This document shows, piece after piece, positions 16,783 through 55,321 of a stretch of DNA of 64,000 nt (position 1 is its first letter; each line of letters begins with the position of its first letter). The stretch comes from a bacterium. Lineage in GTDB: Bacteria > Zhuqueibacterota > Zhuqueibacteria > Zhuqueibacterales > Zhuqueibacteraceae. Made by a program: the position numbers and the translations under genes. The notes beneath the pieces were generated by a model. That model did no database searches. It was not told where the DNA came from and saw only the letters and a list, made by a program, of their open reading frames with translations. The stretch is taken from assembly GCA_037444905.1 (NCBI GenBank), contig JBBILN010000031.1:1-64000 (forward strand). Direction: 5' to 3'.

Positions 16783-19700
16783 TCACTTCACAAACAACAT
16801 CCGCTTGGTGAGACTCATCTCGCCCGTGTGCAACCGGTAGAAATAAATACCGGAGCCGACCGCCTTGCCGTGAGTGTCCTTGCCATCCCACCTCACCTCA
16901 AAACGTCCGGCCGGGCGGTAACCTTCCACCAACGTGGCGACTTTCTGTCCCGCCACGTTGAAAATGTCCACCGTCACGTTCGCCGCATGCGGCAACGCAA
17001 AGGCAATGTTGGTTGAAGGATTAAACGGGTTCGGATAATTCTGCGCCAGCTCGAAAGTCGCCGGAAGCCCGTTGGCATCGCCGCGCTCGGCAACACCGGT
17101 GCTCGTGCCAACGACTTTCACGTTGAGATCGTCAAAATACACGGTGCCCGTGAAACGCGCGTAGGGATGCAAACGCACTTCGAGCGCTCTGGCTTCCGGA
17201 TCATCCGGCACAACGATATCAAGCGTGTATTCGGTCCAATCAAATTGCGTGACGTGCGGAAAAGTGAATTGCGTGTCAATGGGATAACCCGTCACGTTGT
17301 TGAAGCCGTCGTTGTTGCCATTGCCTTTGAAGAAACCGTAGGTGAAGCCGCAAGACCACGTCACTGGATACGCGGCCGCGGAATCCGGCACGAGATTATT
17401 CGCCTTCACCCACACACTGATGCGCAACACATCGCCGGCTTTGACTTCCTTTAGTGAAGTGATGTCATACGGCACACCCTCCGCCGCACTCGTCGCAGCA
17501 CCACTGCCTGAGAGCAAATACCGCTTCGTTCCGACAAACCCATCGTGTGGTTGACGATTGAACGGCAAATCAAATTTCAGCGAGTACAAACCCGAATGCG
17601 CCGCTTCGTTCGTGAGTCGCGTGTTCTCAAAACCATTGGCGAGCACGCCATCGTTGCCGCCGATTGGCGGAAGCCAATACAGCCAGCCCGTGGGCATATC
17701 CACCGATTGATTCCAATTCTGCCCAGCCCACGCGCCTTGCCGGCCAACGTGGATGAAATCATCCGCCCATACTGTGCCCGTCGCATCTTTCCCGCCCACA
17801 AAACTGATCACGGTCTTCCACGCATCGCGCGGCAAAACGGTTTCGCCCACGGCATTCGTATCAGCAACCCAGCCATTGCTGCTCGCGACACTTTGATTGA
17901 TCGGCAGCTTGGTCTCGCCAATGAGTTGTCCGGCTTGATCCCAGAACGTGTAGGCAATCCACCAACGTTGGTCGTCGTTGGCCGGGTTCGTATTGACGTT
18001 CTGTGTTCGCACCCATGCGCCAATCTTGATGTCAACATTCGCGAGATGCTGCGGCGACCAGTAATCCACCATGTTCTCTGAAACCCATGCCGCGGCTTCG
18101 CTGGTGGTGGTCTTGGTAATCTTCAACGAGCGCGCCAAGCTATGCGCTTGATCTGTTGCCCAACTTAATGTCGAACCCGCCGGCTCCGCGCCTTTCGTCC
18201 AATACGAGGGCAAACTGCTTTCGAAACCACCGATGGCAGCCAGCGGCGGAATGTCCAACTTCTCCACGGTCAAGTCATCGAAATAAACCGTGCCCGTGAA
18301 GCGCGCGTACGGATGCAAACGCACTTCGAGCGCTTTCGCCTCGGGATCATTCGGCACCGTCACGTCCAAAGAATACTTCGTCCAATCAAATTGCGTGACG
18401 TGCGGAAAAGTGAATTGCGTGTCAATGGGATAACCCGTCACGTTGTTGAAGCCGTCGTTGTTGCCATTGCCTTTGAAGAAACCGTAGGTGAAGCCGCAAG
18501 ACCACGTCACTGGATACGCGGCCGCGGAATCCGGCACGAGATTATTCGCCTTCACCCACACACTGATGCGCAACACATCGCCGGCTTTGACTTCCTTTAG
18601 TGAAGTGATGTCATACGGCACACCCTCCGCCGCACTCGTCGCAGCACCACTGCCTGAGAGCAAATACCGCTTCGTTCCGACAAACCCATCGTGTGGTTGA
18701 CGATTGAACGGCAAATCAAATTTCAGCGAGTACAAACCCGAATGCGCCGCTTCGTTCGTGAGTCGCGTGTTCTCAAAACCATTGGCGAGCACGCCATCGT
18801 TGCCGCCGATTGGCGGAAGCCAATACAGCCAGCCCGTGGGCATATCCACCGATTGATTCCAATTCTGCCCAGCCCACGCGCCTTGCCGGCCAACGTGGAT
18901 GAAATCATCCGCCCATACTGTGCCCGTCGCATCTTTCCCGCCCACAAAACTGATCACGGTCTTCCACGCATCGCGCGGCAAAACGGTTTCGCCCACGGCA
19001 TTCGTATCAGCAACCCAGCCATTGCTGCTCGCGACACTTTGATTGATCGGCAGCTTGGTCTCGCCAATGAGTTGTCCGGCTTGATCCCAGAACGTGTAGG
19101 CAATCCACCAACGTTGGTCGTCGTTGGCCGGGTTCGTATTGACGTTCTGTGTTCGCACCCATGCGCCAATCTTGATGTCAACATTCGCGAGATGCTGCGG
19201 CGACCAGTAATCCACCATGTTCTCTGAAACCCATGCCGCGGCTTCGCTGGTGGTGGTCTTGGTAATCTTCAACGAGCGCGCCAAGCTATGCGCTTGATCT
19301 GTTGCCCAACTTAATGTCGAACCCGCCGGCTCCGCGCCTTTCGTCCAATACGAGGGCAAACTGCTTTCGAAACCACCGATGGCAGCCAGCGGCGGAATGT
19401 CCAACTTCTCCACGGTCAAGTCATCGAAATAAACCGTGCCCGTGAAGCGCGCGTACGGATGCAAACGCACCTCGAGCGCTTTCGCCTCGGGATCATTCGG
19501 AACCGTCACGTCCAAAGAGTACTTCGTCCAATCAAATTGGGTGACGTGCGGGAAAGTGAATTGCATGTCAATGGGATAGCCCGTCACGTTGTTGAAGCCG
19601 TCGTTGTTGCCGTTGCCTTTGAAGAAACCGTAGGTGAAGCCGCAAGACCACGTCACTGGATACGCGGCCGCGGAATCCGGCACGAGATTATTCGCCTTCA

Positions 19701-20574
19701 CCCACACACTGATGCGCAACACATCGCCGGCCTTTGCGCCACCAGGCAATTGGGAAAGAAGATAACGCTTGGTTCCAACGAACGCATCGTGCGGCTGGCG
19801 GTTGAATGGCAAATCAAATTTCAGCGAATACAAACCCGAATGCGCCGCTTCGTTCGTGAGCCGCGTGTTCTCAAAACCGTTGGCAAGCACGCCATCGTTG
19901 CCGCCGATTGGCGGGAGCCAATACAGCCAGCCCGTGGGCATATCCACCGATTGATTCCAATTCTGCCCGGCCCACGCGCCTTGCCGGCCAACATGGATGA
20001 AATCATCCGCCCACACTGTGCCGGTCGCATCTTTCCCGCCCACAAAACTGATCACGGTCTTCCACGCATCGCGCGGCAAAACGGTTTCGCCCACGGCATT
20101 CGTATCAGCAACCCAGCCATTGCTGCTCGCGACACTTTGATTGATCGGCAGCTTGGTCTCGCCAATGAGTTGTCCGGCTTGATCCCAGAACGTGTAGGCA
20201 ATCCACCAACGTTGGTCGTCGTTGGCCGGGTTCGTATTGACGTTCTGTGTTCGCACCCATGCGCCAATTTTGATATCAACATTGGCGAGATGTTGCGGCG
20301 ACCAGTAATCCACCATGTTCTCTGAAACCCACGAGGCCGCTTCGCTCGTTGTGGACTTCGTAATCTTCAACGAGCGCGCCATGCTGTGTGCTTGATCCGT
20401 GGCCCACGTCAAGGTCGCGCCCGCCGGCTCCGCGCCTTTCGTCCAGTACGAAGGCAGATTGCTCTCGAAACCACCCACAGCATAGAATTGCGCGTGAAGC
20501 GAAGACGCTCCCAACAGGGCTGCTCCAAACAACAGAAGGAGGCCACCTTGCAGTCTTTTCGCAAATAGGCTCAT
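16783..20574 (-). CDS. T9SS-secreted protein with three tandem ~382-aa repeats, each with two CBM4/9-like carbohydrate-binding modules, and a C-terminal sorting domain
   Basis: I place the start at the ATG at 20574 (signal MSLFAKRLQGGLLLLFGAALLGASSLHAQ) rather than at the ORF-track start 20655. Each repeat unit starts 'GGFES(N/S)LPSYWTKGAEPAG...' and carries a second 'LANGFENTRLTNEAAHSGLYSLKFD' module. The C-terminus is 'LAQNYPNPFNPSTNIAFALPHAANVTVDIFNVAGQKVATLVEGYRPAGRFEVRWDGKDTHGKAVGSGIYFYRLH'. Confidence 0.75.
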   Translation of the reverse strand: MSLFAKRLQGGLLLLFGAALLGASSLHAQFYAVGGFESNLPSYWTKGAEPAGATLTWATDQAHSMARSLKITKSTTSEAASWVSENMVDYWSPQHLANVDIKIGAWVRTQNVNTNPANDDQRWWIAYTFWDQAGQLIGETKLPINQSVASSNGWVADTNAVGETVLPRDAWKTVISFVGGKDATGTVWADDFIHVGRQGAWAGQNWNQSVDMPTGWLYWLPPIGGNDGVLANGFENTRLTNEAAHSGLYSLKFDLPFNRQPHDAFVGTKRYLLSQLPGGAKAGDVLRISVWVKANNLVPDSAAAYPVTWSCGFTYGFFKGNGNNDGFNNVTGYPIDMQFTFPHVTQFDWTKYSLDVTVPNDPEAKALEVRLHPYARFTGTVYFDDLTVEKLDIPPLAAIGGFESSLPSYWTKGAEPAGSTLSWATDQAHSLARSLKITKTTTSEAAAWVSENMVDYWSPQHLANVDIKIGAWVRTQNVNTNPANDDQRWWIAYTFWDQAGQLIGETKLPINQSVASSNGWVADTNAVGETVLPRDAWKTVISFVGGKDATGTVWADDFIHVGRQGAWAGQNWNQSVDMPTGWLYWLPPIGGNDGVLANGFENTRLTNEAAHSGLYSLKFDLPFNRQPHDGFVGTKRYLLSGSGAATSAAEGVPYDITSLKEVKAGDVLRISVWVKANNLVPDSAAAYPVTWSCGFTYGFFKGNGNNDGFNNVTGYPIDTQFTFPHVTQFDWTKYSLDVTVPNDPEAKALEVRLHPYARFTGTVYFDDLTVEKLDIPPLAAIGGFESSLPSYWTKGAEPAGSTLSWATDQAHSLARSLKITKTTTSEAAAWVSENMVDYWSPQHLANVDIKIGAWVRTQNVNTNPANDDQRWWIAYTFWDQAGQLIGETKLPINQSVASSNGWVADTNAVGETVLPRDAWKTVISFVGGKDATGTVWADDFIHVGRQGAWAGQNWNQSVDMPTGWLYWLPPIGGNDGVLANGFENTRLTNEAAHSGLYSLKFDLPFNRQPHDGFVGTKRYLLSGSGAATSAAEGVPYDITSLKEVKAGDVLRISVWVKANNLVPDSAAAYPVTWSCGFTYGFFKGNGNNDGFNNVTGYPIDTQFTFPHVTQFDWTEYTLDIVVPDDPEARALEVRLHPYARFTGTVYFDDLNVKVVGTSTGVAERGDANGLPATFELAQNYPNPFNPSTNIAFALPHAANVTVDIFNVAGQKVATLVEGYRPAGRFEVRWDGKDTHGKAVGSGIYFYRLHTGEMSLTKRMLFVK
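17050..20487. repeat. 3 x 1146-bp near-identical tandem DNA repeat inside the CBM-repeat gene
   Basis: Six-frame ORFs recur with an exact 1146-nt offset (17167/18313/19459; 17545/18691; 17577/18723/19821). Copies 2 and 3 are essentially identical at the nucleotide level. Copy 1 differs by scattered substitutions and one indel (LLSQLPGGAKAGD versus LLSGSGAATSAAEGVPYDITSLKEVKAGD). Confidence 0.85.
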
Positions 20575-20813
20575 ACTCTTTTCCCTTTCCTTAAATTTAA
20601 ACTTTATGAATTGGTTTGATTGTGAGTCGTAACGCTCCGCCCTTCTCGCGATCACCTCCTTTCGTTAGATTCCCCCTTCACTATTACGGTAGCAAGCGAG
20701 AATGGCATCCCGCAGCAATCTTGTTCCATTTCAAGCTCTGTGCTGGTGCGAAACAGGATTCTTCCAGAATGGCAAGCGAGGGAAGGGCTGAATAGTTACG
20801 ATTTCCCTTTCAC

Positions 20814-26672: not shown

Positions 26673-26993
26673 TTATCGGGAATAGCCCATTGCAAACAAA
26701 AGCGCGGATCTGATTTCTTCCATTTTTGTTTCCGAGAGTTTCACAATCAAAGCGCCCAACTTGGTTTTCGTCACGGTTTGAACATGGTCCAAATTAATGG
26801 CGCACAACCCCTTCATGCCGTCGCTCTCATCAAGCACTACTTCCGTTGGAATCTCTCGGACCGTCGAAGTAATAGGAGCAATCGTTACTTCACCAAGAAA
26901 TTGCAAGGCTGAGCTACGGGTTAAAACAACGACTGGCCTTTCTTTATCTGGCGGCTTAAACTTATACCAACGAATCTCCCCTCGTTCCATCAT
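26673..26993 (-). CDS. mazF: Type II toxin, MazF/PemK-family mRNA interferase
   Basis: 106 aa; 'RGEIRWYKFKPPDKERPVVVLTRSS...APITSTVREIPTEVVL' matches the PemK/MazF fold. It overlaps the upstream small RHH gene by 4 bp. Confidence 0.75.
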   Translation of the reverse strand: MMERGEIRWYKFKPPDKERPVVVLTRSSALQFLGEVTIAPITSTVREIPTEVVLDESDGMKGLCAINLDHVQTVTKTKLGALIVKLSETKMEEIRSALLFAMGYSR

Positions 26994-27232
26994 TCACTCC
27001 ATGCCTGCTCATTCTCCCACACATCAAACTCACCAGCTTGTACAGGCTGCTTCGAGTATCCTTCATGGTGTCGCTTCTCCATTTCTTTGATCTGCAATTG
27101 TTCGAGGTAATGGAGCAACGACGCACGCAGAAATTCCGACCACGTAGTCTGCTGTTGCTGAACGGCATGATTCACTCGCGACAAAAGGTCTTCTTCAATC
27201 GTCAGTTGAATCGTCTTCATAGGCGTGTCCAA
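26990..27232 (-). CDS. Antitoxin (ribbon-helix-helix/CopG-like, MazE-equivalent)
   Basis: 80-aa acidic protein directly upstream of, and 4-bp overlapping with, the mazF-like gene; N-terminal beta-strand 'KTIQLTIEEDLLSRVNHAV'. Confidence 0.55.
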   Translation of the reverse strand: MDTPMKTIQLTIEEDLLSRVNHAVQQQQTTWSEFLRASLLHYLEQLQIKEMEKRHHEGYSKQPVQAGEFDVWENEQAWSE

Positions 27233-30438: not shown

Positions 30439-31647
30439 ATGAGCTCAAGCCACGAAGACAGAATGACCAACAAAACAGAAACGTTTTCCACAGTCAATCC
30501 GACAGTGCTTGAGGAAAGTCATCTCACCGAAGAACAAGACCTCGCACCACAGCCTCTTCCCACACCCGGAAAGAAATTTCCGTGCCGTCAGTGCGGCGCG
30601 CATCTTGAATTCAATCCCACCGCGCAAGCGTTGACATGCCCGTATTGTCATCATCAAGAAAAAATTCCGCAAAGCGCCGAAGAAATCGTCGAGCGTTCTT
30701 ACGAGGATTATTTGAAGGCCAGCCGCGCGGGGTTGCAGGTGAGCAATGGCGCCGAGCTTGAGGTGAAGTGCCACGCGTGCGGCGCGGTGATCATGATGCC
30801 GGCGAATGTCGTCACGCAAGATTGCCCATTCTGCGGTGTGCATTTGGAATCGCAGCCGCATGCGACCGAGCCGTTTATCGAGCCGAGCGCGGTCTTGCCT
30901 TTCAAAATCGATCAAGCCGGCGCACAAGCCGCGTTTCAAAATTGGATTCGCGGTTTGTGGTTCGCGCCGAACGCGCTCAAACAAATCGGCGAACTGGGCA
31001 AGCTTGTGGGCATGTACACGCCGTTTTGGACGTTCGACGCCATGACACTCACGTTTTATCAAGGCGAGCGCGGCACACACTATTGGGAGACGGAAGATTT
31101 TATCGCGAATGTAAACGGCCGCAACGAGCGCCGCACCCGCCGGGTGCAACGCACGCGCTGGCAATCCGCGAGCGGCTCGGTGCGGCATTGGTTCGACGAC
31201 GTGACGGTGCTCGCTTCGCGCGGGATGCCCGCGGAATATGCGCAGGATTTGGATCCGTGGGATTTGCAAGCATTGGCGAATTTCAAAGCGGAGTATCTCA
31301 GCGGCTTTCGCACCGAGCGCTATCAGGTGGGATTGGAAGAAGGTTTTAATCGCGCGAAGCAATTCATGCAGCCCACATTGCACGCGCTTATTTGCCGCGA
31401 CATCGGCGGCGATGCGCAGCGCGTGCAATCCGCCTCGACGCAATATTCCGGCATCACCTTCAAACATATTCTCCTCCCAATTTGGATTTCCGCCTATCGC
31501 TACGGCGGCCAATTGCATCGCATTCTCATCAACGCCCGCACCGGCGAAGTGCAAGGCAGCCGGCCGTATTCCCCGTGGAAAATTGCAGGCGCGGTGTTGT
31601 TGGCGCTGGCGGTCGCCGTACTTTACTTTTTGTTCCAATCAAACTGA
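30439..31647 (+). CDS. Hypothetical membrane-anchored protein with a double zinc-ribbon N-terminus
   Basis: Two CxxC-x(15-18)-CxxC zinc ribbons (CRQCGAHL...CPYCHH; CHACGAVIM...CPFCGV), a ~250-aa domain of unknown function, and a C-terminal TM helix (WKIAGAVLLALAVAVLYFLF). Its start overlaps the preceding stop (ATATGA). Confidence 0.5.
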   Translation: MSSSHEDRMTNKTETFSTVNPTVLEESHLTEEQDLAPQPLPTPGKKFPCRQCGAHLEFNPTAQALTCPYCHHQEKIPQSAEEIVERSYEDYLKASRAGLQVSNGAELEVKCHACGAVIMMPANVVTQDCPFCGVHLESQPHATEPFIEPSAVLPFKIDQAGAQAAFQNWIRGLWFAPNALKQIGELGKLVGMYTPFWTFDAMTLTFYQGERGTHYWETEDFIANVNGRNERRTRRVQRTRWQSASGSVRHWFDDVTVLASRGMPAEYAQDLDPWDLQALANFKAEYLSGFRTERYQVGLEEGFNRAKQFMQPTLHALICRDIGGDAQRVQSASTQYSGITFKHILLPIWISAYRYGGQLHRILINARTGEVQGSRPYSPWKIAGAVLLALAVAVLYFLFQSN

Positions 31648-31762
31648 ATTCTTAAGCAATCTTTCAATTGCATTTTTTTAAAGTTCCATTATTTTTGGCT
31701 AACAAGGTCGCGTTCACACAAGCTTGTTATTGGTTTCGTATATTATTGATGAGGAGAATGAC

Positions 31763-32014
31763 ATGATCGACGTTAAGCAAGCCGCTCAAATCGCAGCCAA
31801 TTACTTCTCAGATTTGAATCCTGGCAAATTTCAGAATCTCGCGCTCGAAGAGATCGAATTAACCGACGATGAGGAGAATTGGTTGGTAACACTTGGGTAT
31901 AATCCGCCCTCGACCAATATTTTTGTTAACGGGCCAGTGGCGCGAGAATACAAAGTGATCAGGATTGATGCGAAAGACGGGAAAGTAGTTTCGATGAAGA
32001 TTAAAAAAATCTAA
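31763..32014 (+). CDS. Small PepSY-like protein (candidate partner of the downstream PIN-domain protein)
   Basis: 83 aa from the ATG that follows GAGGAG. The helix-then-beta-hairpin pattern '...NWLVTLGY...YKVIRIDAKDGKVVSMKI' is PepSY-like. It lies in the AT-rich islet, 7 bp upstream of the PIN gene. Confidence 0.4.
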   Translation: MIDVKQAAQIAANYFSDLNPGKFQNLALEEIELTDDEENWLVTLGYNPPSTNIFVNGPVAREYKVIRIDAKDGKVVSMKIKKI

Positions 32015-32020
32015 ACGCCG

Positions 32021-32542
32021 ATGGATCACTTGATAAAATTGCTTGAGTTTTATCGAAACCGCGGACTTCTTCTCGATGCGAATCTTCTTCTTTTGTACGT
32101 CGTTGGGCGATGCGACATTCGGGCCGTGACTTCTTTCAAACGAACAAAAATCTTCACTCCTGAAGATTACGGTTTGTTAGAAAACTTCGTCCGTTATTTC
32201 AGGAGTATCGTTACGACGCCTAATATTCTAACGGAGGTCAGCAATTTATTGAATCAGCTACCCGACAATATCAAAGCCGAGCATTTCGTACAGTTTGCCA
32301 ATGTCATTGAAAGTTTAAACGAAGAATATGTTGCCAGCGCTCTCCTTGCGATTCAACCGCAATTCGAAAAATTCGGTCTAACAGATTTCAGCATTATCAC
32401 CGAGGCTCGAGGGAGATACTTAATTCTAACCGATGATTTCAGATTATCAAATTACCTTCAAAGCTTAAGGGTCGACGTAATTAATTTTAATCACATTCGA
32501 ACCTATCATTGGAAGATGCCTCCGCGTCAATTTAGCTTTTGA
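32021..32542 (+). CDS. PIN-domain protein (putative ribonuclease)
   Basis: The four acidic positions are spaced as in a PIN fold: 'LLDANLLLLYVVG', 'ILTEVSNLL', 'LTDFSIITEARG', 'YLILTDDFRL'. The gene is AT-rich. Confidence 0.5.
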   Translation: MDHLIKLLEFYRNRGLLLDANLLLLYVVGRCDIRAVTSFKRTKIFTPEDYGLLENFVRYFRSIVTTPNILTEVSNLLNQLPDNIKAEHFVQFANVIESLNEEYVASALLAIQPQFEKFGLTDFSIITEARGRYLILTDDFRLSNYLQSLRVDVINFNHIRTYHWKMPPRQFSF

Positions 32543-32563
32543 ACTTCCGCACAAATAAACTTT

Positions 32564-33457
32564 TTACCTCAACATCGCCCGCAACGCGCTTTCCAAATCG
32601 CCGTGTTTGAAACTATATCCATTCGTCACGAGTTTTGCCGGCGCAATGCGCGCACTGGAGAGCAAAAGATCGTCGGCCATTTCGCCCAATACCAGCCGCG
32701 CAGCAAATGCCGGTAGTGGGAAAATCGTGGGCCGTGAGATCACTCGTCCCAACGTCTTCGTGAATTCGCGATTGGTAACGGCTTGCGGCGCGACGAGATT
32801 CACCGGCCCGCGCAACGACTCCGTCATCACCGTGAACTGCAATGCGCCGATCACGTCTTCCAGCGCAATCCAGCTCCAATATTGTTCGCCGCTGCCGATC
32901 ACCCCGCCCACTCCCAGTCTGAACGGCAATAACATTTTTGCGAGCGCGCCGCCTTCGGTGCTGAGCACGATTCCAATGCGCGGCGTTACCACACGAATGC
33001 CTTTGCGCGCGGCCGGCTCTGTCGCTCTTTCCCAAGCCACACAAGTCTCCGCAAGAAAACCCGAACCCGGCGTGCTTTCTTCGCGCAAAATTTCATTGCC
33101 GCGATTGCCGTAATAGCCGATCGCCGAGGCGCTCACCAGCACACGCGGCGGTTGGTGCAATTGCGCCAGCGTATCACACAAAAGCTTCGTGCCCTGCTTG
33201 CGGCTCTCCATGATGCGCGCCTTTTTCGCCGCAGTCCATCTGCCCTCAATCCTTTCGCCCGCAAGATGCACCACCGCATCGAAACCCTCCAAATCGGAAA
33301 GATTCAATTTGCCGTTTTTCGGATCCCACTGCAGGGCGCGCACGTGCCCGTCGCCGCCGCGGCGTGAAAGCCCGATGACCGCATGCCCGTTGCTCTGCAG
33401 CGCTTGCACTAACTTCGCGCCGATAAAACCGGTGAAACCCGTGACGAGAATTTTCAT
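32564..33457 (-). CDS. TIGR01777-family NAD-dependent epimerase/dehydratase-like protein (YfcH-like, C-terminal DUF1731)
   Basis: I place the start at MKILVTGFTGFIG (ATG at 33457) rather than at the ORF-track start 33511, giving the Rossmann motif at the N-terminus. The whole protein, from MKILVTGFTGFIGAKLVQ to the C-terminal '...VNLVAPQAVTNREFTKTLGRVISRPTIFPLPAFAARLVLGEMADDLLLSSARIAPAKLVTNGYSF', is collinear with YfcH-like proteins. Confidence 0.8.
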   Translation of the reverse strand: MKILVTGFTGFIGAKLVQALQSNGHAVIGLSRRGGDGHVRALQWDPKNGKLNLSDLEGFDAVVHLAGERIEGRWTAAKKARIMESRKQGTKLLCDTLAQLHQPPRVLVSASAIGYYGNRGNEILREESTPGSGFLAETCVAWERATEPAARKGIRVVTPRIGIVLSTEGGALAKMLLPFRLGVGGVIGSGEQYWSWIALEDVIGALQFTVMTESLRGPVNLVAPQAVTNREFTKTLGRVISRPTIFPLPAFAARLVLGEMADDLLLSSARIAPAKLVTNGYSFKHGDLESALRAMLR

Positions 33458-33473
33458 GTGTTCCCTCGCTTTG

Positions 33474-33824
33474 CTATTTGCCAAAAACTTTGCGATACAT
33501 CGCTTCGTCAAAACCGACGATGAGCGTGCGGCCCTTGCGAATCGCGGGCGAACGCAAATTGCCGGTGCGGCCGATTAACACACTCACCAGCAAGTCCGTG
33601 CTCGGCCGGTCTTTTTTCAGATCAAGATGAACGAGGCTCCTCGCCTTCGTTGCAAAGATCTCGTCGATATCTTTGATCATCTCCAATACTTCTTGCGGCG
33701 GCAACGCGACTTTCTTTGTGCTCGCTTTTTCCTCAGGTTCAATCTTATGCTGCGCAAGAAACTCTTGCGTTTTGGCGCACGTTTCTCAGCTCGGGCGATA
33801 ATAATACCAATCGACTCTGGCCAT
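33474..33824 (-). CDS. Spx/ArsC-family thioredoxin-fold protein with an in-frame TGA (candidate selenocysteine, U-x-x-C redox motif)
   Basis: Reading the minus strand from the ATG at 33824 gives MARVDWYYYRPS-[TGA at 33788-33786]-ETCAKTQEFLAQHKIEPEE...LRSPAIRKGRTLIVGFDEAMYRKVFGK, in frame with the ORF-track fragment 33474..33704. This aligns residue-for-residue with Spx ([22 protein letters not shown]...LRRPIIIDEKRLQVGY), and the TGA falls exactly on the first Cys of the CxxC motif. A Shine-Dalgarno sequence AGGAG precedes the ATG, and a hairpin lies 19 nt downstream of the TGA. Confidence 0.6.
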
Positions 33825-34036
33825 GTGCTCCTCTTCTCTCTTTGCGTTTGCCTTTGCGTGATTTCAAAGCGATTTCAACACGGCCAATTTACAGCAATCT
33901 TCATCATTTGTCAAATCGGAATCGCCACGACCTTGTCTGACCCAAGGCGCAGCTTGCTTACGAAGGCCGCGTTGCGTAAATTACGCCCGTAGAATTCTTC
34001 CAGCCCGTCAATATGAATTCAATTTGAGGCCGCATC

Positions 34037-34783
34037 ATGAGAAAGAATCAAATCCACGAGTTTGCAGATGCGCGCTACGCCGGCATTCTAATCGCGGTGT
34101 TCGTCATCGCCGCATGGGCCGGCAGCCTCGCTTCTGCTCTGCAACTCGACATCGCAAATTTTCCCGCTTGGGGCAGTATGGCCGCGGTGCTGTTACTGAC
34201 GTTCCTCTATACCGGCCTCTTCATCACCGCACACGACGCCATGCACGGCTTGGTTGCGCCGCAGCACAAACGGGTGAATCATCTCATCGGCGCGGTGAGT
34301 GTCTTGCTCTATGCGCTCTTTTCATTTCAGCGCCTCAAAGCCGAGCATCGCAAACATCACGCACATCCGGGCAGCGCCGAGGATCCGGATTATCACGACG
34401 GCGAGCATCGCGGCTTTTGGCGCTGGTATTTTCACTTCATGCGCACTTACGTAACGTGGCAACAACTCCTCGGCATGGCGCTTGCGTTCAACATCCTTCA
34501 TCATCTCTTGAACATTCCTGTTCGCAATTTGCTTTTCTTTTGGGTCGCGCCCGCGCTGCTCAGCACATTGCAGCTTTTTTATTTTGGAACATTTTTGCCG
34601 CACCGCGAGCCTGAGGGCGGCTATCGCAACGAGCATCGCGCGGAGAGCAATGACTTTTCAGTACTCTGGTCGTTTCTCACTTGCTACCACTTCGGTTATC
34701 ATTGGGAGCATCACGAGTATCCGTATGTGCCGTGGTGGAAGCTGCCGGCCGTTCGAAAAAATTTAAGCCAATCTTCTCTATGA
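34037..34783 (+). CDS. crtW: Beta-carotene 4-ketolase (CrtW-type membrane di-iron desaturase-like)
   Basis: Three His boxes at CrtW spacing: 'AHDAMHG', 'EHRKHHAH', 'HWEHHEYPYVPWWKLP'; four TM segments. Confidence 0.75.
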   Translation: MRKNQIHEFADARYAGILIAVFVIAAWAGSLASALQLDIANFPAWGSMAAVLLLTFLYTGLFITAHDAMHGLVAPQHKRVNHLIGAVSVLLYALFSFQRLKAEHRKHHAHPGSAEDPDYHDGEHRGFWRWYFHFMRTYVTWQQLLGMALAFNILHHLLNIPVRNLLFFWVAPALLSTLQLFYFGTFLPHREPEGGYRNEHRAESNDFSVLWSFLTCYHFGYHWEHHEYPYVPWWKLPAVRKNLSQSSL

Positions 34784-35739
34784 CGAATTCCACAGCCAAA
34801 GTGCGCCTCGGCGTGAGCACGTGTTTGCTCGGCGAAAACGTGCGCTTCGACGGCGGGCACAAAGAAGATCACTATCTCACGGAAACGCTTGCGCCCTTTG
34901 TGGAATGGGTCGCGGCCTGCCCGGAAGTCGACATTGGTTTGGGCACGCCACGCGAGTCGATTCGCTTGATCGGAACGACGAATGCGCCGCGCTTGTTCGC
35001 GCCGAAATCCGGCATCGATCTCACCGAGAAAATGCTCTCGTATGCGTACGCCAAAGTCGCGCAGCTCAAGCAAATGGATTTGGACGGCTACATTCTGAAA
35101 AAGGATTCGCCGAGTTGCGGCATGGAGCGCGTGCGCATCTATCACGAAAGCGGCTCGGCTTCCCGTACGGGCACGGGCTTGTTCGCGCGCGTGCTCATGG
35201 AAGAGATGCCCGATTTGCCGGTGGAAGAAGAAGGCCGCTTGCACGATTCCAGCTTACGCGCGAACTTCATCGTGCGCGTATTTGCGCATCGCCGCTGGCG
35301 CGAGCTTGTTGCAAACGGTTTTAGCCTCGCCGCGTTGGTGGCATTTCATGCGCAGCATAAATTTCTGCTGATGGCACACAGCGAAAAACACTTGCGCGCG
35401 ATGGGGAAATTGGTGGCGGAAGCAAAAGCGCGCAAACCTAAAGACGCTTTTTCAGAATATAGCAAGCTGTTGTTCTCGGCATTGCGCGAGGCTGCCACCA
35501 AGCGTTCACACACAAATGTGCTGCAGCACCTCGCAGGCTTCTTCAAAAAGCAGTTGGAGAGTAAAGACAAGGTCGAATTGCAAAACGTCATCGCCGACTT
35601 TCGCAAAGGCTTGGTGCCGCTGATCGTGCCCATCACGCTCATCAAACATTACATCAACAAATTCGATTTGCAATACCTTCGCGATCAAGTCTACCTCAAT
35701 CCCCATCCCAAAGAACTCATGCTCCTCAATCATGTGTGA
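34780..35739 (+). CDS. DUF523 (YbbK-like) plus DUF1722 (YbgA-like) fusion protein
   Basis: I place the start at MTNSTAKVRLGVSTCLLGENVRFDGGHK (ATG at 34780, forming an ATGA overlap with the crtW stop) rather than at the ORF-track start 34681. This architecture is commonly encoded beside photolyase genes in light-induced operons. Confidence 0.7.
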   Translation: MTNSTAKVRLGVSTCLLGENVRFDGGHKEDHYLTETLAPFVEWVAACPEVDIGLGTPRESIRLIGTTNAPRLFAPKSGIDLTEKMLSYAYAKVAQLKQMDLDGYILKKDSPSCGMERVRIYHESGSASRTGTGLFARVLMEEMPDLPVEEEGRLHDSSLRANFIVRVFAHRRWRELVANGFSLAALVAFHAQHKFLLMAHSEKHLRAMGKLVAEAKARKPKDAFSEYSKLLFSALREAATKRSHTNVLQHLAGFFKKQLESKDKVELQNVIADFRKGLVPLIVPITLIKHYINKFDLQYLRDQVYLNPHPKELMLLNHV

Positions 35740-35751
35740 AGAGAGAGCTTC

Positions 35752-35772
35752 ACCAAACTTTTCAAGTTTGGT
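35752..35772. promoter_or_regulatory. Perfect 9-3-9 palindrome ACCAAACTT-TTC-AAGTTTGGT, 24 bp upstream of the photolyase start
   Basis: Read directly. Related copies lie at 37286-37306 and 43190-43214. The half-site CACCAAACT recurs at 35801-35810, overlapping the photolyase start codon. Confidence 0.4.
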
Positions 35773-35795
35773 AAAGCTGCGCTCGGAAGAACCAA

Positions 35796-37277
35796 ATGAT
35801 CACCAAACTCAATCTCAAAGCATTGCGGCAGCGTTCAACGCCAATTCCACCCGCGGGCCGCGAAAGAGATTTTGACCCGATGCGCAAGCGGATCATCGCG
35901 TTGCAAGAGGGCGCACCGCGCAAGGGCGCGAAGTATGTTTTGTATTGGATGCAAATCCACCGCCGCGCGTATCAGAATCAGGCGCTGAATTTCGCCCTTG
36001 AACAAGCCAATGCTCTGGGGCTACCACTTGTCGTTTATGAAGGCCTGCGCCCCGACTACGATCAAGCCAACGATCGCATGCATCAATTCATCATTGCAGG
36101 CGCGTTGGACAACCGCCGCGACTTCGCGAAGCGCGGCATTCGCTATTGTTTCTATCTTATGCCGGACGCGAGAACCGGCAACCGCCGCGCAGTCGCGCAG
36201 CTCGCGCAAGAAGCGGCGCTGCTCGTCACGGATGATTTTCCGACCTTCGTCATTCCGCAACACAATCGCGCCATTGTCAAGCAAGTCGAAGGTCCCGTGT
36301 ACGCCGTGGATGCCAACGGCGTCGTGCCCATGCGCGAATTGGATCATGAAGAATATGCCGCGCGCACGATTCGTCCGCGCATACATCGCTTGCTGCCCGC
36401 ATACTTCTGGCCGATTGCGGAAGTCACGCCGAAAATAAAAAGCGGCGAGCTGCCCTTGAATCTGCGGGAAGAAACGCGACTCGACGGCGTTGATTTGCAA
36501 ACCTTGCTCGCCGCAACGAACATCGATCACAACGTCGCGCCCTCGCGCTGTTTCCACGGCGGACGCAAAGCGGCATTCGCGCGGCTGAAAACCTTTCTCG
36601 CGGAGCGATTGCAAAACTATGCGGCGGGTCGCAACCTCGCGGGGGAGCATTGGACGAGCGAGCTTTCGCCCTATTTGCACTTTGGCCACATCAGTGCGAT
36701 GGAAGTGGCGTGGGAAGTATTGCACGCCGAGGCGCCCGCAGAATGTATCGACGCATTTCTCGAAGAGCATATTGTGCGGCGTGAATTGTCATATAACTTT
36801 TGCCACTTCAATAAGAAACACGCAAGCCTTGAGGCGCTGCCCGCGTGGGCAAGACAGACTCTCTTCGCGCATGAAAAAGATCAACGCGCTCATCTCTACA
36901 CTTCCGAAGAGTTCGAACAGGCCGCGACGCACGACGAGCTTTGGAATCTCACGCAACGCGAGCTTTTGGCAACGGGGAAAATTCACGGTTACATGCGCAT
37001 GCTTTGGGGCAAGAAGATCATCGAGTGGAGCGCTTCCCCGCAAGAAGCAATGATGACGATGATTCGTCTGCATCACCGTTATGCGTTGGACGGCCGCAAT
37101 CCCAACACCTACACGGGCATTCTGTGGTGCTTCGGCAAGCACGACCGCGCGTGGGGCCCGCAGCGCCCGATTTATGGCTTGGTGAGATACATGGCTTCGG
37201 AGAACACGAAACGCAAAATAAATTTTGGGGCGTATAAAGAATGGGTGGAGGAATGTGAGAGGAACGAACGGGCATAA
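35796..37277 (+). CDS. phr: Deoxyribodipyrimidine photolyase, class II CPD photolyase
   Basis: Class II hallmarks: 'KYVLYWMQ', 'ELSPYLHFGHIS', 'GKIHGYMRMLWGKKI', 'NPNTYTGILWCFGKHDRAWG'. Confidence 0.85.
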   Translation: MITKLNLKALRQRSTPIPPAGRERDFDPMRKRIIALQEGAPRKGAKYVLYWMQIHRRAYQNQALNFALEQANALGLPLVVYEGLRPDYDQANDRMHQFIIAGALDNRRDFAKRGIRYCFYLMPDARTGNRRAVAQLAQEAALLVTDDFPTFVIPQHNRAIVKQVEGPVYAVDANGVVPMRELDHEEYAARTIRPRIHRLLPAYFWPIAEVTPKIKSGELPLNLREETRLDGVDLQTLLAATNIDHNVAPSRCFHGGRKAAFARLKTFLAERLQNYAAGRNLAGEHWTSELSPYLHFGHISAMEVAWEVLHAEAPAECIDAFLEEHIVRRELSYNFCHFNKKHASLEALPAWARQTLFAHEKDQRAHLYTSEEFEQAATHDELWNLTQRELLATGKIHGYMRMLWGKKIIEWSASPQEAMMTMIRLHHRYALDGRNPNTYTGILWCFGKHDRAWGPQRPIYGLVRYMASENTKRKINFGAYKEWVEECERNERA

Positions 37278-37285
37278 GCAGTTTT

Positions 37286-37306
37286 ACTAAACTTTTCAAG
37301 TTTGGT
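37286..37306. promoter_or_regulatory. Palindrome ACTAAACTT-TTC-AAGTTTGGT between the convergent phr and GHMP-kinase genes
   Basis: Read directly. It is the same family as the element at 35752, and here could act as a bidirectional terminator hairpin or a protein-binding site. Confidence 0.4.
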
Positions 37307-37313
37307 AGAACTT

Positions 37314-38405
37314 TTAATCAACCCGCACGCCCTCCTCAATTGAAATCACATACGGCGCGCCGCCTACGGCGTGAATTGCTTCGGCTACGGCCTCGGCGTG
37401 TTGCGGCGCGTATGCGAACATGCAACCGCCGCCGCCCGAGCCGTTGATCTTCCCCCCCAATGCTCCCGCCTGCATCGCACTCTCCAGCATGCGCTCGATT
37501 TTCGGCGTCGAAACTTTTTTGTAGTCGCGCAATTGCTCGTGATGTTGATTCAGCAATTCGCCAAAGCGGTTGTGATCGAGCGTCTCGTGCTGTAAAACGA
37601 TGCGCGCTTCGCGCAGCAGATCGCGGTCGATCAAATTCGCGCGCAGCACTTCGGCGTGGCGAAATGGTAGTTTTCGCAAAGCGCCATGCGCTTCCTCGAG
37701 TGAAGTCTGGCGCAAATCAAATTGCGGCTGCATCTCGCGCATCAGCATAACGGCTTCTTGCGCCACATCCCGCACGTTGCGCAAAATACTCTTCGTATCC
37801 TTCGGCTCGCGCGAATCGCCGAGCACAAACGCGCCGAGCCGAGGCTTGAGGGTTTGCACTTCATGGTTGGAAAAATCAAGATAGATCACGTTGCCGTAGC
37901 ACGTGGAGAAGTGGTCCATCATGCCGCCCGGCTCGTTGAACTCGCGCACCTCGGCTTGATAGGCAAGGCGGGAAATCACTTCACGATCGTTTTGTTGCGG
38001 ATCATTCGCAGCCATGAGCAAAAACTTGATCCACGCCACCATCAGCGCCGAAGAACTCGACGTGCCGGAATTGATCGGCACCTTGCCGCGCACTTCGCAA
38101 TTCCAGCCGTGTTGCGGGCGAAAGCCGCGCTCCCACACAACGTTGAAGCCGCTGCGAAAATAATCGCGTTCGAGTTGATACGCAAGGCGTTCATTTGGAA
38201 TAAAGTCGAGATGCCTGCGGATATCGGGCAACTCGATATGAAAACGCAAATCCTCGCGCGGCGCGCCGGTGATGCGCATGCGCAAACTGATGGCCGCGGC
38301 AATCACAGGCAAGCCAAGGTAATCTTGATGCTCGCCGAAGAGGCAAATGCGGCCAGGCGTGGAGACGGTGAGTTTGTGGGGCATGCCATGCTCTTGTTGT
38401 GACAT
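37314..38405 (-). CDS. GHMP-family sugar kinase (galactokinase-like)
   Basis: Motif I 'GRICLFGEHQDYLGLPV', the GHMP ATP-binding motif 'PINSGTSSSSAL', and C-terminal 'GGKINGSGGGGCMFA'. Confidence 0.8.
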   Translation of the reverse strand: MSQQEHGMPHKLTVSTPGRICLFGEHQDYLGLPVIAAAISLRMRITGAPREDLRFHIELPDIRRHLDFIPNERLAYQLERDYFRSGFNVVWERGFRPQHGWNCEVRGKVPINSGTSSSSALMVAWIKFLLMAANDPQQNDREVISRLAYQAEVREFNEPGGMMDHFSTCYGNVIYLDFSNHEVQTLKPRLGAFVLGDSREPKDTKSILRNVRDVAQEAVMLMREMQPQFDLRQTSLEEAHGALRKLPFRHAEVLRANLIDRDLLREARIVLQHETLDHNRFGELLNQHHEQLRDYKKVSTPKIERMLESAMQAGALGGKINGSGGGGCMFAYAPQHAEAVAEAIHAVGGAPYVISIEEGVRVD

Positions 38406-38522
38406 CCAGAGATTGTCATTCGGGAGAAATCTTTTTACTCGCCGGAGAGACTACCCAGTGCTTAAAAAGATTCCATCTGAATGACACCGCGAGCGCGGCT
38501 CTTCATGTTTCTCTCGATCAAC

Positions 38523-41045
38523 TCAATTCGACCAAATCAATCCCACGCTCACTCTCCTCCCCACCTCATACGCGGTCGGATCCTCGAGTACGCCGCCAAT
38601 GCGGCCTTGTTGATCGCGCCACAAAAGATTTTGGCTATCCAGCAAATTCCGCCCCTCGAGCTGCAGCGACAATTGCATGCCGCCGAATGAAAAATTCTTG
38701 CGCGCTTTTACGTCAAAATAGTTGGTCCAATTCAGACGGCGGTTATTCGGCGAAATCAATTTGCCCGCGTTGTTCGCGCGGTTTTCATCCAGCGTATACG
38801 GCTTCGGGCTATTGATGCGCCATACCGCGTTCACGCTCCAACTCTTCTCGTGTTGATAATCGACATGCGCGATGATGGTGTGGCGTTGATCCCAACTCAA
38901 AAAATGCTCGCCCTCTTCCACAATGCCGCCGTATTGCAGCACGTTTTCTTTATCTCCAATCGCGAAGCTTGAGCCTTTGGCTTGCATGAGCGTGTAGCTG
39001 ATTTGTCCGCGCCAATTGCGGCCTTGCTGCTTGCGCACAAATAGCTCCAAACCGTTCGCCGTGCCGTACGCCAAATTGACGAAGCGCGTGTACACGCCGC
39101 TCGATTGCAAGCCCGTGTCTTCGAGTGGAATCGGATAGAACTGCACGTCGATGAGATTCTTGATGTCTTTGTTGAAGCCCGTGAGGCTGAACAGCCAATC
39201 TTCGCCAATGCTCTTTTCATAACCCACTTCCAACGCAGTCGTTTTTTCCGGCGCGAGATCGGGATTGCCCACGAGCGGATTGTATGCGGTGAAATCATAT
39301 TCCAAATTTGTGTAGAGATATTCGAACAGCGGCGCTTGAAAAAAGTGGCCGTAGTGCAAATGCAGCTTGTCGTTCTTCCCCACCGGGAACGCAACACCGA
39401 AGCGCGGACTGAGCTGCGTTTTGCTCGCCACCGGTGTTTTCTTCGTGAACACTTGAATCTCGTTGCTGTTGCCTTTGGTGATCGCTTCGATCGCAGGCCG
39501 CTCGCCCGCCGGGTCGAGATAATCGAAACGCATGCCGAAGTTCAACGAGAAGCGTTTGAGATCGTACTTGTCTTGCACGTAGGCCGCGCCCATTTTCGGA
39601 AAGTAACGATAACTCGTGTTATAAACGTTGAAACGAAATTCCGGCGGCAATTCGGGATGAAAGTCGGGCGGGAAGGGATCGATTTGCACGTTGTCCATGA
39701 ACAAGTCGTAGTACGTGAAATCCACGCCCGCTTTGAGCTGATGATTGTGCTGCCATTGGCTCACGATGTCGATGCGCGCGTTTGAAATGATCTCCTGTGA
39801 ATCCTGCCACCAGGCTTTGTCTCCTCCTAAAATAAAAAGGCCCTCGTCGTCGAATTGCACATTCAAATCATATTGACTCTGCGGCCGGCCGAGCACGGAT
39901 TTGAGAATGCTATAATAACTCAGCTTCGTCGTATAAAAAGTTTTCGTGCTAAGCGTGTGCGTCCACGTTGTGTTCAGGCGAAAGCTGTCTTTCGCGCGCG
40001 GCGGCAAGCCTTGCAGGTTTTGATACCAACGATGTTCGTACGCGCGCCAATCCGAAAGCGAGAGCAGGCCTTGCAGCACGAGCTTTTGTGTGGGATTGAA
40101 ATTGATCGAAAGCTTGGCGTTGCCGTGCAAGTTCTCTTCGATGGGGCCGTCAAAAAATGTGCGAAACGGTTTGCGCCAGCGCGTGTCGCTCGCTTGATAT
40201 TGTGCGGAAACATAATAGCGCATGCCCCAAAACAACGGCCCGCTGACTGAGCTTTCGACGTTGCGCGTGCGATTGAAATCCGTGTTGTCCCACGAGCCGG
40301 GCACCTCGCCGACGATATCCGAAGAGCCTTCGAGATAATACTTCGTGCGCTCCGTGCCTTCTTGCGTAATGATGTTCACGACGCCCGACATCGCGTTGCC
40401 GTATTCGGCATTGAAGCCGCCGGTTTGAATGGCCATGTCTTGAATCGAAACGTTGGGCACGTTGATGCCGCGACCGCCGGAGATCGCTTCCTGCACCGGA
40501 ATGCCATCGACGAGATAAAGCACCTCGGTCACGCGGCCGCCGCGAATGTGGCCTTCCACCACGCCGGGCTGCAAGTTCACGACTTCATCTACCGTCGCGA
40601 TGGGCAACGATTTAATTACCTCGCCGCGCACTTCGTGCTGCGAGCCGGTGATGTCCATTTGAATCGCCTCGCGCTCGGCCCTCACCACGATCTCTTTTTC
40701 CAATGTGAGGGTAGTGGGCGTGAGCACAAAATCGATAATCGTGCGTGCGTCCGCGCGAATGACGATGTTCGTGCGCGTAAACTTTACGTAGCCGATCATC
40801 TCCGCAGTTACGGTGTAAATGCCCGGCGGAAGGTTGTTGACAATAAACTGGCCTTTGTTGTTCGCCGCGGCGCCGGCCTTCGTGCCCTTGACAAGTATGC
40901 TCGCACCGGGCAACGGCCTTTTGGTTTCGGCGTCAGTGATCACGCCGGTCAATGTTCCCGTGACGCCGGCAAATGCAGGCGTGGCTTGCCAGAGGCATGT
41001 TGTGAAAACAAACGCGCACAAAAGCCCAACAAGGCGACGATTCAT
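38523..41045 (-). CDS. TonB-dependent receptor (CarbopepD_reg domain plus plug plus barrel)
   Basis: Signal peptide, then 'GVITDAETKRPLPGASILV', plug 'DITGSQHEVRGEVIKSLP...LQPGVV', and a beta-barrel terminus 'VSVGLIWSN'. Confidence 0.85.
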   Translation of the reverse strand: MNRRLVGLLCAFVFTTCLWQATPAFAGVTGTLTGVITDAETKRPLPGASILVKGTKAGAAANNKGQFIVNNLPPGIYTVTAEMIGYVKFTRTNIVIRADARTIIDFVLTPTTLTLEKEIVVRAEREAIQMDITGSQHEVRGEVIKSLPIATVDEVVNLQPGVVEGHIRGGRVTEVLYLVDGIPVQEAISGGRGINVPNVSIQDMAIQTGGFNAEYGNAMSGVVNIITQEGTERTKYYLEGSSDIVGEVPGSWDNTDFNRTRNVESSVSGPLFWGMRYYVSAQYQASDTRWRKPFRTFFDGPIEENLHGNAKLSINFNPTQKLVLQGLLSLSDWRAYEHRWYQNLQGLPPRAKDSFRLNTTWTHTLSTKTFYTTKLSYYSILKSVLGRPQSQYDLNVQFDDEGLFILGGDKAWWQDSQEIISNARIDIVSQWQHNHQLKAGVDFTYYDLFMDNVQIDPFPPDFHPELPPEFRFNVYNTSYRYFPKMGAAYVQDKYDLKRFSLNFGMRFDYLDPAGERPAIEAITKGNSNEIQVFTKKTPVASKTQLSPRFGVAFPVGKNDKLHLHYGHFFQAPLFEYLYTNLEYDFTAYNPLVGNPDLAPEKTTALEVGYEKSIGEDWLFSLTGFNKDIKNLIDVQFYPIPLEDTGLQSSGVYTRFVNLAYGTANGLELFVRKQQGRNWRGQISYTLMQAKGSSFAIGDKENVLQYGGIVEEGEHFLSWDQRHTIIAHVDYQHEKSWSVNAVWRINSPKPYTLDENRANNAGKLISPNNRRLNWTNYFDVKARKNFSFGGMQLSLQLEGRNLLDSQNLLWRDQQGRIGGVLEDPTAYEVGRRVSVGLIWSN

Positions 41046-48245: not shown

Positions 48246-49418
48246 TCACACCCGCTTCCACAAAATCGACTGCTTGCGCAACACGAAGCGCACAAAGCCG
48301 AAAACCGTTGACACATTCCCCATCAAAAAGTAAAACGGAATATACAGGTAACGAATGCGCAAGCCGACATATTCCTGCAAGAACCCCAAAGCCCCGGCAA
48401 GATAGAAAGCCAGTTGCAAATCGAGCAGGAGCCAGTAAAACGGCGCTTGCGCCAGAAAACAGGCGAAAGGCAAAGCGAGAATAAAGAAAGGGCTGGCAAG
48501 GCGCAGCACTTTGTGTGAAACGAACTGCAGCGCCACGATGCCGCGCATGGGATTGCACAAACTGCGCAGCATGTAAATCTGCTGAAAGTTGCCGACGTTG
48601 ATGCGGATGCGGCGATTGAATTCGCCGTTCAACGTCGTGGATTCATCTTCGACCACGACGGCCTCCGGCTCGTACTGCACCCGATAGCCTTCTTTGATAA
48701 TGCGCATGGGCAGAATGAAATCGTCGTTGATGGTTTTCTTGTGCAGCGGCTTGAAGAGCCGCCGGCGGAAGCCATATAGCGCGCCGTGCGCCCCAATGGT
48801 GGAGTGCACGAGGCTCTCATATTTTTTCAAAAACGTTTCATAGTGCCAATACACTTTCTCCGTGGCGCTGCGCAACGATTCATCTTCGGTATCAAAACTA
48901 TACACGCCGGAAACACACCCCACGCGCGCATTCTGAAAATGGCGCAGCAATTTTTTTAAAGCCTCCGGCTTGACCATGCCCGAAGCGTCGGAAAGCACGA
49001 CGATATCGCCGTCCAAAGTGGGAATGACTTGATTGAGCACCGTGGTTTTGCCTTGGCGCGGTGTGAGCGGGAGAAAGGTGATTTCATTCGCACCATAGCA
49101 ACTCAGCATGGCGTTGGTTTGATCCGTGGATCCATCCGAAGCGACCACGATTTTGAGACGATCGCGAGGATAATCCAAATCCAACGTGTTTTCCACTTTT
49201 TTGCGGATGACGCGCTCTTCATTATAGGCGAGAATGAGAAAGCTGACCGTGGGCCAGTCGTGGTCGTGCAAAGGGGGCTGCGCTTGCGCCTTTCCGTGCG
49301 CAGGCTCAAGCCACCGGCGCACGTGCGCGAGCGCGAAAACGAGCAGAGGATAACCGATAAACGTGTAAAACAAAACGCCGAGACACAGCCAAACTGCAAA
49401 TCGCCAGAATGATTCCAT
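48246..49418 (-). CDS. Family 2 glycosyltransferase (processive, cellulose-synthase/PgaC-like membrane GT2)
   Basis: I place the start at MESFWRFAVWLCLGVLFYTF (ATG at 49418) rather than at the ORF-track start 49544. DxD-type motifs 'ILAYNEE', 'VASDGSTD', 'VVLSDASGMV' and a QxxRW-like region are present, with C-terminal TM helices. Confidence 0.8.
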   Translation of the reverse strand: MESFWRFAVWLCLGVLFYTFIGYPLLVFALAHVRRWLEPAHGKAQAQPPLHDHDWPTVSFLILAYNEERVIRKKVENTLDLDYPRDRLKIVVASDGSTDQTNAMLSCYGANEITFLPLTPRQGKTTVLNQVIPTLDGDIVVLSDASGMVKPEALKKLLRHFQNARVGCVSGVYSFDTEDESLRSATEKVYWHYETFLKKYESLVHSTIGAHGALYGFRRRLFKPLHKKTINDDFILPMRIIKEGYRVQYEPEAVVVEDESTTLNGEFNRRIRINVGNFQQIYMLRSLCNPMRGIVALQFVSHKVLRLASPFFILALPFACFLAQAPFYWLLLDLQLAFYLAGALGFLQEYVGLRIRYLYIPFYFLMGNVSTVFGFVRFVLRKQSILWKRV

Positions 49419-49589
49419 GAGACGGTTCCAGAATATGATGCAATCACATTCCGGCCACCGTCCGATGTGCAGCCGAAACTCCCGAGAAAGGCTGGTGGGT
49501 TGGATTGATGGAATCTTGGAGCACGGCGGCCAATGCTCTTTCACTCCAGGGCGCCATCATTCCGCAAAATCCGCCGCTCTGCTGCTCTT

Positions 49590-51070: not shown

Positions 51071-51195
51071 GTCGTTTGCGCAAGAATCTCATCGCATTGT
51101 TGCATTCTTGGAATGAGGGCGCATTGGTTTGAAGCCGCGCTGCCATTGCCGAAGCTGCACAGTTGGAACAAGAGCTTCCAACACGCCGGCCTCTC

Positions 51196-52356: not shown

Positions 52357-52365
52357 TGCGGCATA

Positions 52366-55314: not shown

Positions 55315-55321
55315 GCTCGAA

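Follow-up and report, generated by a model that had tools for sequence, protein, structure and literature searches.

Is the in-frame TGA near the start of a short gene on contig JBBILN010000031.1 a stop codon, or is it read as selenocysteine (Sec)? The window that we analysed is a 64,000-nucleotide (nt) stretch of this contig, from a bacterium of the Zhuqueibacteraceae, and the gene lies on its minus strand at positions 33474-33824. A sequence-only reading had proposed a selenoprotein of the Spx/ArsC type at this locus. Translation and direct reading bore out the elements from which the proposal was built: an ATG at 33824-33822, a ribosome-binding-site-like AGGAG 3 nt upstream of it (33828-33832), a TGA at 33788-33786 as codon 13, and a frame that continues past the TGA into the open reading frame (ORF) fragment 33474-33704 and ends with a TAG at 33476-33474. 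The translation from 33824 reads MARVDWYYYRPS, the TGA, then ETCAKTQEFLAQHKIEPEE and onwards to LRSPAIRKGRTLIVGFDEAMYRKVFGK before the terminal stop, the TGA being the sole internal one; the C-terminal end before the TAG can also be written GRTLIVGFDEAMYRKVFGK. According to the aligned codons of 80 related loci, the TGA (U13) is the first position of a U-E-T-C redox motif. The presumed resolving cysteine, Cys16, is encoded by a TGC at 33777-33779 and occupies an invariant column of the protein alignment; the TG of this codon (nt 10-11, where the U of the UGA is nt 1) does not vary in 67 Sec forms. We conclude that the locus very probably encodes a 116-residue thioredoxin-fold protein of family NF041106, in which the UGA is recoded to Sec by means of a downstream hairpin and which has a redox role.

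Gene callers shorten this gene, as had been anticipated. The program-made ORF list of the window holds just the C-terminal fragment 33474-33704 (76 residues), and the public gene call, P0002, has 68 residues that are identical to residues 49-116 of the product. For the profile searches, the U13 of the product was replaced by C. Searching the protein database gave 264 relatives, most of them short calls at 59-87% coverage; the few full-length relatives (115-116 residues) have C-x-x-C at the aligned site. In all seven loci where we read the DNA 5' of a shortened call, we found a short N-terminal piece, a stop codon, and then an in-frame [D/E]TCAKTQEFLA. The public calls at this and dozens of orthologous loci, with lengths of 68-102 residues, are too short and have lost the active site.

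Relatives turned up in at least 568 genomes when one genome per species was scanned, and the best 80 of these loci served for the codon and neighbourhood counts. The codon aligned with the TGA is TGA in 66 loci, TGC in 13 and TGT in one; TAA and TAG do not occur, and there are no frameshifts. Judged by their record titles, these loci belong to the Acidobacteriota, Methylomirabilota/Rokubacteria, Planctomycetota, Zixibacteria, Calditrichia, Gemmatimonadales, Nitrospinota, Tectomicrobia, Actinomycetota, Chloroflexota and unnamed lineages. With 66 of the 80 loci sharing the TGA and the other 14 carrying Cys at this codon, the recurrence is far beyond chance. Two signs of a selenoprotein gene, a UGA aligned with Cys in homologues and its retention as TGA in orthologues, were both found, and the Cys that the TGA replaces is the first of the CxxC motif, as claimed at the outset. 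TGA is also the commonest stop codon among the long ORFs of the window. Genome-wide reassignment of TGA (genetic codes 4 and 25) was considered and rejected, because TGA terminates 24 of these 37 ORFs.

A decaying ArsC/Spx-like pseudogene, its catalytic Cys codon mutated to a stop, would likewise appear as a short gene with one in-frame stop, of which callers report just a C-terminal fragment. Such a gene would not be expected to carry the same TGA in species-level genomes of many phyla, nor to remain free of frameshifts in all 80 loci, nor to possess a hairpin specific to the TGA form (see below). It would not be expected, either, to be under in-frame purifying selection on both sides of the TGA. 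In the ten codons 5' of the TGA, the summed entropies at the first, second and third codon positions are 6.2, 4.6 and 12.5, the pattern of third-position wobble, and synonymous changes make up a fraction of 0.52 of the differences in frame versus 0.16-0.19 in the other frames. As judged by these substitution patterns, both sides of the UGA are evidently translated in one frame and under protein-level selection. We give the pseudogene explanation next to no credence.

The TGA could also be a sequencing or assembly error, given that a single base separates it from TGC or TGT. Assembly L090 (Logan, run SRR11582173), which was built independently, is 100% identical to window positions 31519-40424 (8,906 nt), TGA included; because it may derive from the same reads, what this rules out is an artefact of assembly, not an error in the reads. 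Four assemblies of a ~90%-identical relative, which come from different samples, have the TGA as well. The window moreover carries the full hairpin of the Sec forms, which is missing from the Cys forms. A read error thus looks implausible in view of the orthologues, and the probability that the true codon is TGC or TGT seems to us negligible.

The element that would direct recoding, a selenocysteine insertion sequence (SECIS), is a hairpin at 33753-33769 on the minus strand, with a 5' arm CGCAAGA (33769-33763), a GUU loop (33762-33760) and a 3' arm UCUUGCG (33759-33753). The sequence-only reading had named this hairpin, CGCAAG(A)-GUU-(U)CUUGCG, and placed it 19 nt after the UGA; it starts at nt 20, which is 19 nt past the U of the UGA. 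Nucleotides 20-26 pair with 30-36 to form a 7-bp stem that overlies the codons for T-Q-E-F-L-A. An 18-nt stretch beginning 16 nt after the UGA, ACGCARGRGUUYCUUGCG, is near-invariant across phyla in the 67 Sec-type sequences and free to vary in the 14 Cys-type sequences. At third codon positions 21, 27, 33 and 36, the entropy is 0-0.5 bit in Sec forms compared with 1.0-1.7 bit in Cys forms; it is about 1.5 bit at the third positions next to them. All 67 Sec forms have the loop G, as against 7 of the 14 Cys forms, and the hairpin energy, -8.5 kcal/mol in the window, averages -8.4 kcal/mol in the Sec forms versus +4.0 kcal/mol in the Cys forms.

In an alignment of 64 distinct sequences, 97.5% of the stem cells are paired. 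Pair 24/32 is A-U in 37 sequences and G-U in 27; the loop-closing pair 26/30 is A-U in 41, G-C in 22 and mismatched in one. None of 500 shuffles reached the observed stem pairing or covariation, and sliding the 3' arm by 1-3 nt as a control lowered the pairing to 32-67%. By these alignments, the hairpin is evidently conserved, covarying and specific to Sec forms. The exchange at pair 26/30 also affects the protein: a Glu-to-Gly replacement (GAG to GGG) is tied to a synonymous TTT-to-TTC change that keeps the base pair, and the conserved peptide T-Q-[E/G]-F-L-A appears to owe its sequence to the SECIS RNA and not to the function of the protein. We compared the window hairpin with the constraints of the bacterial SECIS (bSECIS) model of Zhang & Gladyshev, as summarised in PMC13188914. 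The model specifies an apical loop of 3-9 nt (3 nt in the window), an upper stem of 4-16 bp (7 bp), the loop pattern N1-G-[G/U]-N-N2 (A-G-U-U-U), a distance from UGA to loop of 16-37 nt (23 nt) and a stability of -7.5 kcal/mol or lower (-8.5 kcal/mol), and the window hairpin satisfies every one of these published constraints.

Two other pairings were examined and rejected. An alternative helix suggested alongside the first hairpin, GUGCGC with GCGCAG (nt 10-14/34-38), is 68% paired and shows no covariation. A rival hairpin of nt 8-13 with 20-25 (33764-33781, CCUGCG/CGCAGG), whose 3' arm is the 5' arm of the SECIS, is 88% paired, with covariation that does not exceed that of shuffles. It is weak in the window (-3.5 kcal/mol) and probably arises incidentally from the codons that specify C-[A/G] and T-Q, although it could modulate the availability of the SECIS.

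Several observations weigh against Sec insertion at this locus. The rival hairpin just described takes the minimum free energy (MFE) fold in many orthologues. Folding 76 nt around the UGA as a single sequence gave an MFE of -14.1 with z = 0.23, which is not distinctive; the SECIS evidence is comparative, not thermodynamic. Covariation on both sides of the stem is seen in just one pair, the other stem positions being invariant and therefore uninformative about structure when taken alone. Rfam gave no match, either in the whole window at gathering thresholds or in 33600-33900 at E<=10, which places the hairpin outside all curated RNA families. There are no tRNA genes, and hence no tRNA-Sec, in the 64-kb window; no SelA, SelB or SelD domains among its 43 ORFs; and neither tRNA-Sec nor selA, selB or selD in the flanks of the related loci examined. 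Finally, we found no experimental study of any NF041106 member in the selenoprotein literature. A scan of the window for other genes with TGA read-through and a nearby Cys returned noise only and no second selenoprotein candidate.

Given that no Sec machinery lies in the window, its presence in the genome is deduced from the selenoprotein gene itself: we infer that the source genome has SelB and tRNA-Sec, that the inserted residue is Sec, and that its chemistry is redox chemistry. The unseen machinery, and the indirect identification of the residue, also leave room for recoding of the UGA to something other than Sec, such as Cys delivered by a tRNA-Sec-like tRNA in a SECIS- and SelB-like manner, or a residue inserted by near-cognate read-through. 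PMC13582414, citing Vargas-Rodriguez et al. 2018, notes that UGA can also be recoded by way of other anticodon types when a SECIS lies downstream. Against this stand the fit of the hairpin to a canonical SelB-type bSECIS, including the invariant loop G-U, the curation of NF041106 as a selenoprotein family, and the alternation of Sec and Cys at the redox site, which is the standard signature of a selenoprotein. We consider non-Sec recoding very improbable.

For decoding to Sec, the sequence of events would be as follows. An elongating ribosome would reach the UGA at codon 13, while the mRNA hairpin of 7 bp with its GUU apical loop would fold 23 nt downstream of it. SelB-GTP-Sec-tRNA(Sec) would dock on the GUU loop and bring Sec, as in the established bacterial pathway, and translation would go on to the TAG at 33474. 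In the finished protein, U13-E-T-C16 would alternate between the selenol/thiol and selenenylsulfide states, and the protein would act as an oxidoreductase. The gene would be co-transcribed with a TIGR01777 NAD(P)-dependent oxidoreductase gene from a conserved sigma-70-like promoter. The putative promoter of the ArsC-like gene, TTGACA-17 nt-TAAATT at 33886-33914 on the minus strand, matches 10 of 12 consensus positions and lies about 60 nt 5' of the ATG; the block TTGACAAA to ATTGCnGTAnATT is kept 5' of the orthologues in the closest relatives (L003, L008 and L009).

To which family does the product belong? It matches NF041106, 'ArsC_rel_Se_1, ArsC family (seleno)protein' of NCBIfam, with 124.6 bits (curated cutoff, 85; E=2.3e-36) over the entire profile, positions 1-107 of 107. 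The U/C-x-x-C motif required near the N-terminus of this family is present as U13-E-T-C16, and homologues in NCBI already bear the name 'ArsC family (seleno)protein'. The product is an ordinary member of an already curated UxxC selenoprotein family. The original assignment to an Spx/ArsC family holds at the level of the superfamily, with a Pfam ArsC match at E=9e-9 and a profile alignment to Bacillus subtilis Spx at E=4e-8 in which U13 and C16 face Spx C10 and C13. Orthology to Spx did not stand, because the score against TIGR01617 is 42.8 bits, below the cutoff of 75.05. The Spx equivalog models gave 23-37 bits versus cutoffs of 123-159.

It had also been stated, correctly, that ArsC-like selenoproteins are known from bacterial surveys. 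'ArsC-like' selenoproteins were among those listed in 2006 (PMC1794560), and the Global Ocean Sampling (GOS) survey contains 'Arsenate reductase 2, cd03032, UxxC' with 42 Sec and 238 Cys sequences (PMC2398784), to which NF041106 probably corresponds. An 'Arsenate reductase-like protein, UxxC' appears in a 2022 review (PMC9312934) and in PMC13188914. A true glutaredoxin-coupled arsenate reductase ArsC, with Sec as the nucleophile, would agree with the Pfam ArsC membership. U13 also lies at the position of the catalytic Cys12 of R773 ArsC. However, the product has no match to the arsenate-reductase equivalog TIGR00014 at E<=1, and no arsR, arsB, ACR3 or arsA gene was found in the window or among the conserved neighbours of the related loci. 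The product carries UxxC, but the arsenate-reductase-type selenoprotein of the surveys carries UxxS (PMC2398784, PMC9312934). Arsenate reduction is a very unlikely function.

For a structural view we used the Cys homologue P0004, which is 49% identical to the window product and was modelled with a 53-sequence alignment (model m660a25255858; predicted local distance difference test score (pLDDT), 95; predicted template modelling score (pTM), 0.88). The first helix spans residues 14-25 and has the CxxC at its N-terminus, the usual position of this motif in thioredoxin-fold redox proteins. In the middle region, the AlphaFold model of P0004 has a confident β-hairpin at residues 55-68, where Spx and ArsC structures have a helical subdomain. 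At most ~75% of the residues superpose on any solved structure of the ArsC superfamily, and the product belongs to a divergent branch of the ArsC/Spx/YffB superfamily. Analogy with its relatives makes a selenol/thiol oxidoreductase the most likely function. That it is instead an Spx-like redox-sensing transcription factor, which binds the C-terminal domain of the RNA polymerase α subunit and is not an enzyme, would agree with Spx being the closest solved sequence and with the alignment of the CxxC to Spx C10/C13; we judge this unlikely.

The gene downstream, at 32564-33457 on the minus strand, begins after a gap of 16 nt from the selenoprotein stop and encodes a YfcH-type oxidoreductase (TIGR01777, 325 bits versus a cutoff of 207; Pfam Epimerase and DUF1731). 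The two genes are probably co-transcribed. In 20 of the 80 loci, from several phyla and in varied gene orders, a TIGR01777 homologue is found no more than ~2.6 kb from the ArsC-like gene, upstream in some and downstream in others; the linkage is seen with both the Sec and the Cys form, and this homologue is the sole widely recurrent neighbour. It may be the functional partner of the ArsC-like protein. The oxidoreductase at 32564-33457 also resembles cyanobacterial ThyD.

On the plus strand, divergent from the selenoprotein operon, are genes for a CrtW-like β-carotene ketolase (34037-34783; 346.6 bits, just below the NCBIfam cutoff of 350) and, by profile match, a TudS-DUF1722 protein resembling the tRNA 4-thiouridine (s4U) desulfidase RudS (about 34774-35739) and a class-II-type photolyase (35796-37277). 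The same arrangement is found in L003-L006, L008 and L009. This is a typical light-response and photoprotection gene set, and it is context rather than part of the selenoprotein gene. RudS genes have been described in operons that respond to light, together with photolyase and LitR (PMC11417400). We found no CarH/LitR-type regulator in the 64-kb window; in four genomes of the closest clade (L010, at 1856-2812, L013, L014 and L015), a regulator with a MerR-type helix-turn-helix (HTH) and a B12-binding domain, which is the CarH/LitR architecture, lies directly upstream of and co-oriented with the Sec-type gene. The 212-bp spacer between the divergent genes has a similar TTGC(N)GTAAATT element in both promoter regions, at 33967-33990 (plus) and 33886-33898 (minus), and the element, which is kept in L003 and L008, may serve both promoters as a -10 or operator motif.

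Our most speculative suggestion, drawn from the neighbourhood alone, is that the gene pair takes part in a response to light or photo-oxidative stress. The more specific proposal, a two-gene redox module of the NF041106 and TIGR01777 proteins within a B12/CarH-LitR light regulon that includes ketolase, RudS and photolyase, is possible yet doubtful. Against it, the photoprotection link is a minority among the 80 loci (TIGR01777, 20; RudS, nine; photolyase, three; CarH/LitR, four). If the proposal is true, an uncharacterised selenoprotein family specifically repairs or prevents photo-oxidative damage.

The remainder of the window contains several other features. A 1290-residue ORF with a FlgD_ig C-terminal domain (16783-20655, minus) is built from three tandem units of ~1146 bp with 88-100% nucleotide identity. 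Tandem Repeats Finder (TRF), with a period limit of 500 nt, found nothing in this ORF, and the repeat was confirmed by a separate repeat search; the units are very recent internal duplications or possibly the result of assembly collapse or expansion. An IS110-family transposase (DEDD_Tnp_IS110 and Transposase_20; 5849-6916, plus) is flanked by the gene of a large secreted protein with Laminin_G and Por_Secre_tail domains and by a peptidyl-prolyl isomerase (PPIase) gene. At 26673-27198 (minus), a MazF/PemK-type toxin gene (26673-26993) is accompanied by a short upstream ORF that could be the antitoxin. A large exopolysaccharide cluster at 48246-63188 (minus) encodes glycosyltransferases, a Wzx-like flippase, a Wzy_C ligase/polymerase, Poly_export and a GNVR/tyrosine-kinase-like chain-length regulator. 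Proteins of the type IX secretion system (T9SS) kind (Por_Secre_tail, PorV-like), several of which are encoded elsewhere in the window, suggest that the organism belongs to the FCB group.

The selenoprotein gene is nothing new in kind, because its family is already in NCBIfam and in the selenoproteome reviews. Its practical value is an annotation fix, the correct product being a 116-residue UxxC selenoprotein, and the gene marks the source organism as a Sec user. Two additions were not found in the selenoprotein literature: a SECIS consensus for the whole family, CGCARGR-GUU-YCUUGCG, which includes the covarying pair, and the neighbourhood links. The consensus is clean and spans phyla, and it could seed a covariance model, of which Rfam has none that matches. 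The links hint, in a way that can be tested, at a joint function of this uncharacterised family and a TIGR01777 oxidoreductase under light stress.

How does the locus compare with known systems? Its hairpin is like the E. coli fdhF-type SECIS, and the bSECIS in general, in lying within the coding region just past the UGA and in having a small apical G-U loop. It differs from the fdhF-type element in being minimal, 7 bp and a triloop, without the conserved lower stem or the bulged U. The protein differs from YffB (PA3664, PDB 1rw1) and the Bacteroides ArsC-family structure 3gkx, with 17-21% identity and no more than 84-88 of 115 residues superposing. Spx/MgsR (TIGR01617; PDB 1z3e, 6ghb) belongs to the same superfamily: each residue of the CxxC, at the N-terminus of helix 1, has its counterpart in the alignment, and a C-terminal G-x-L-R-x-P...VGF/Y block is held in common, but the window product is ~15 residues shorter and the modelled middle subdomain differs. 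With NF041106 the window gene shares the UxxC motif, the length of 115-116 residues and the Sec/Cys alternation, and there is no essential difference between them.
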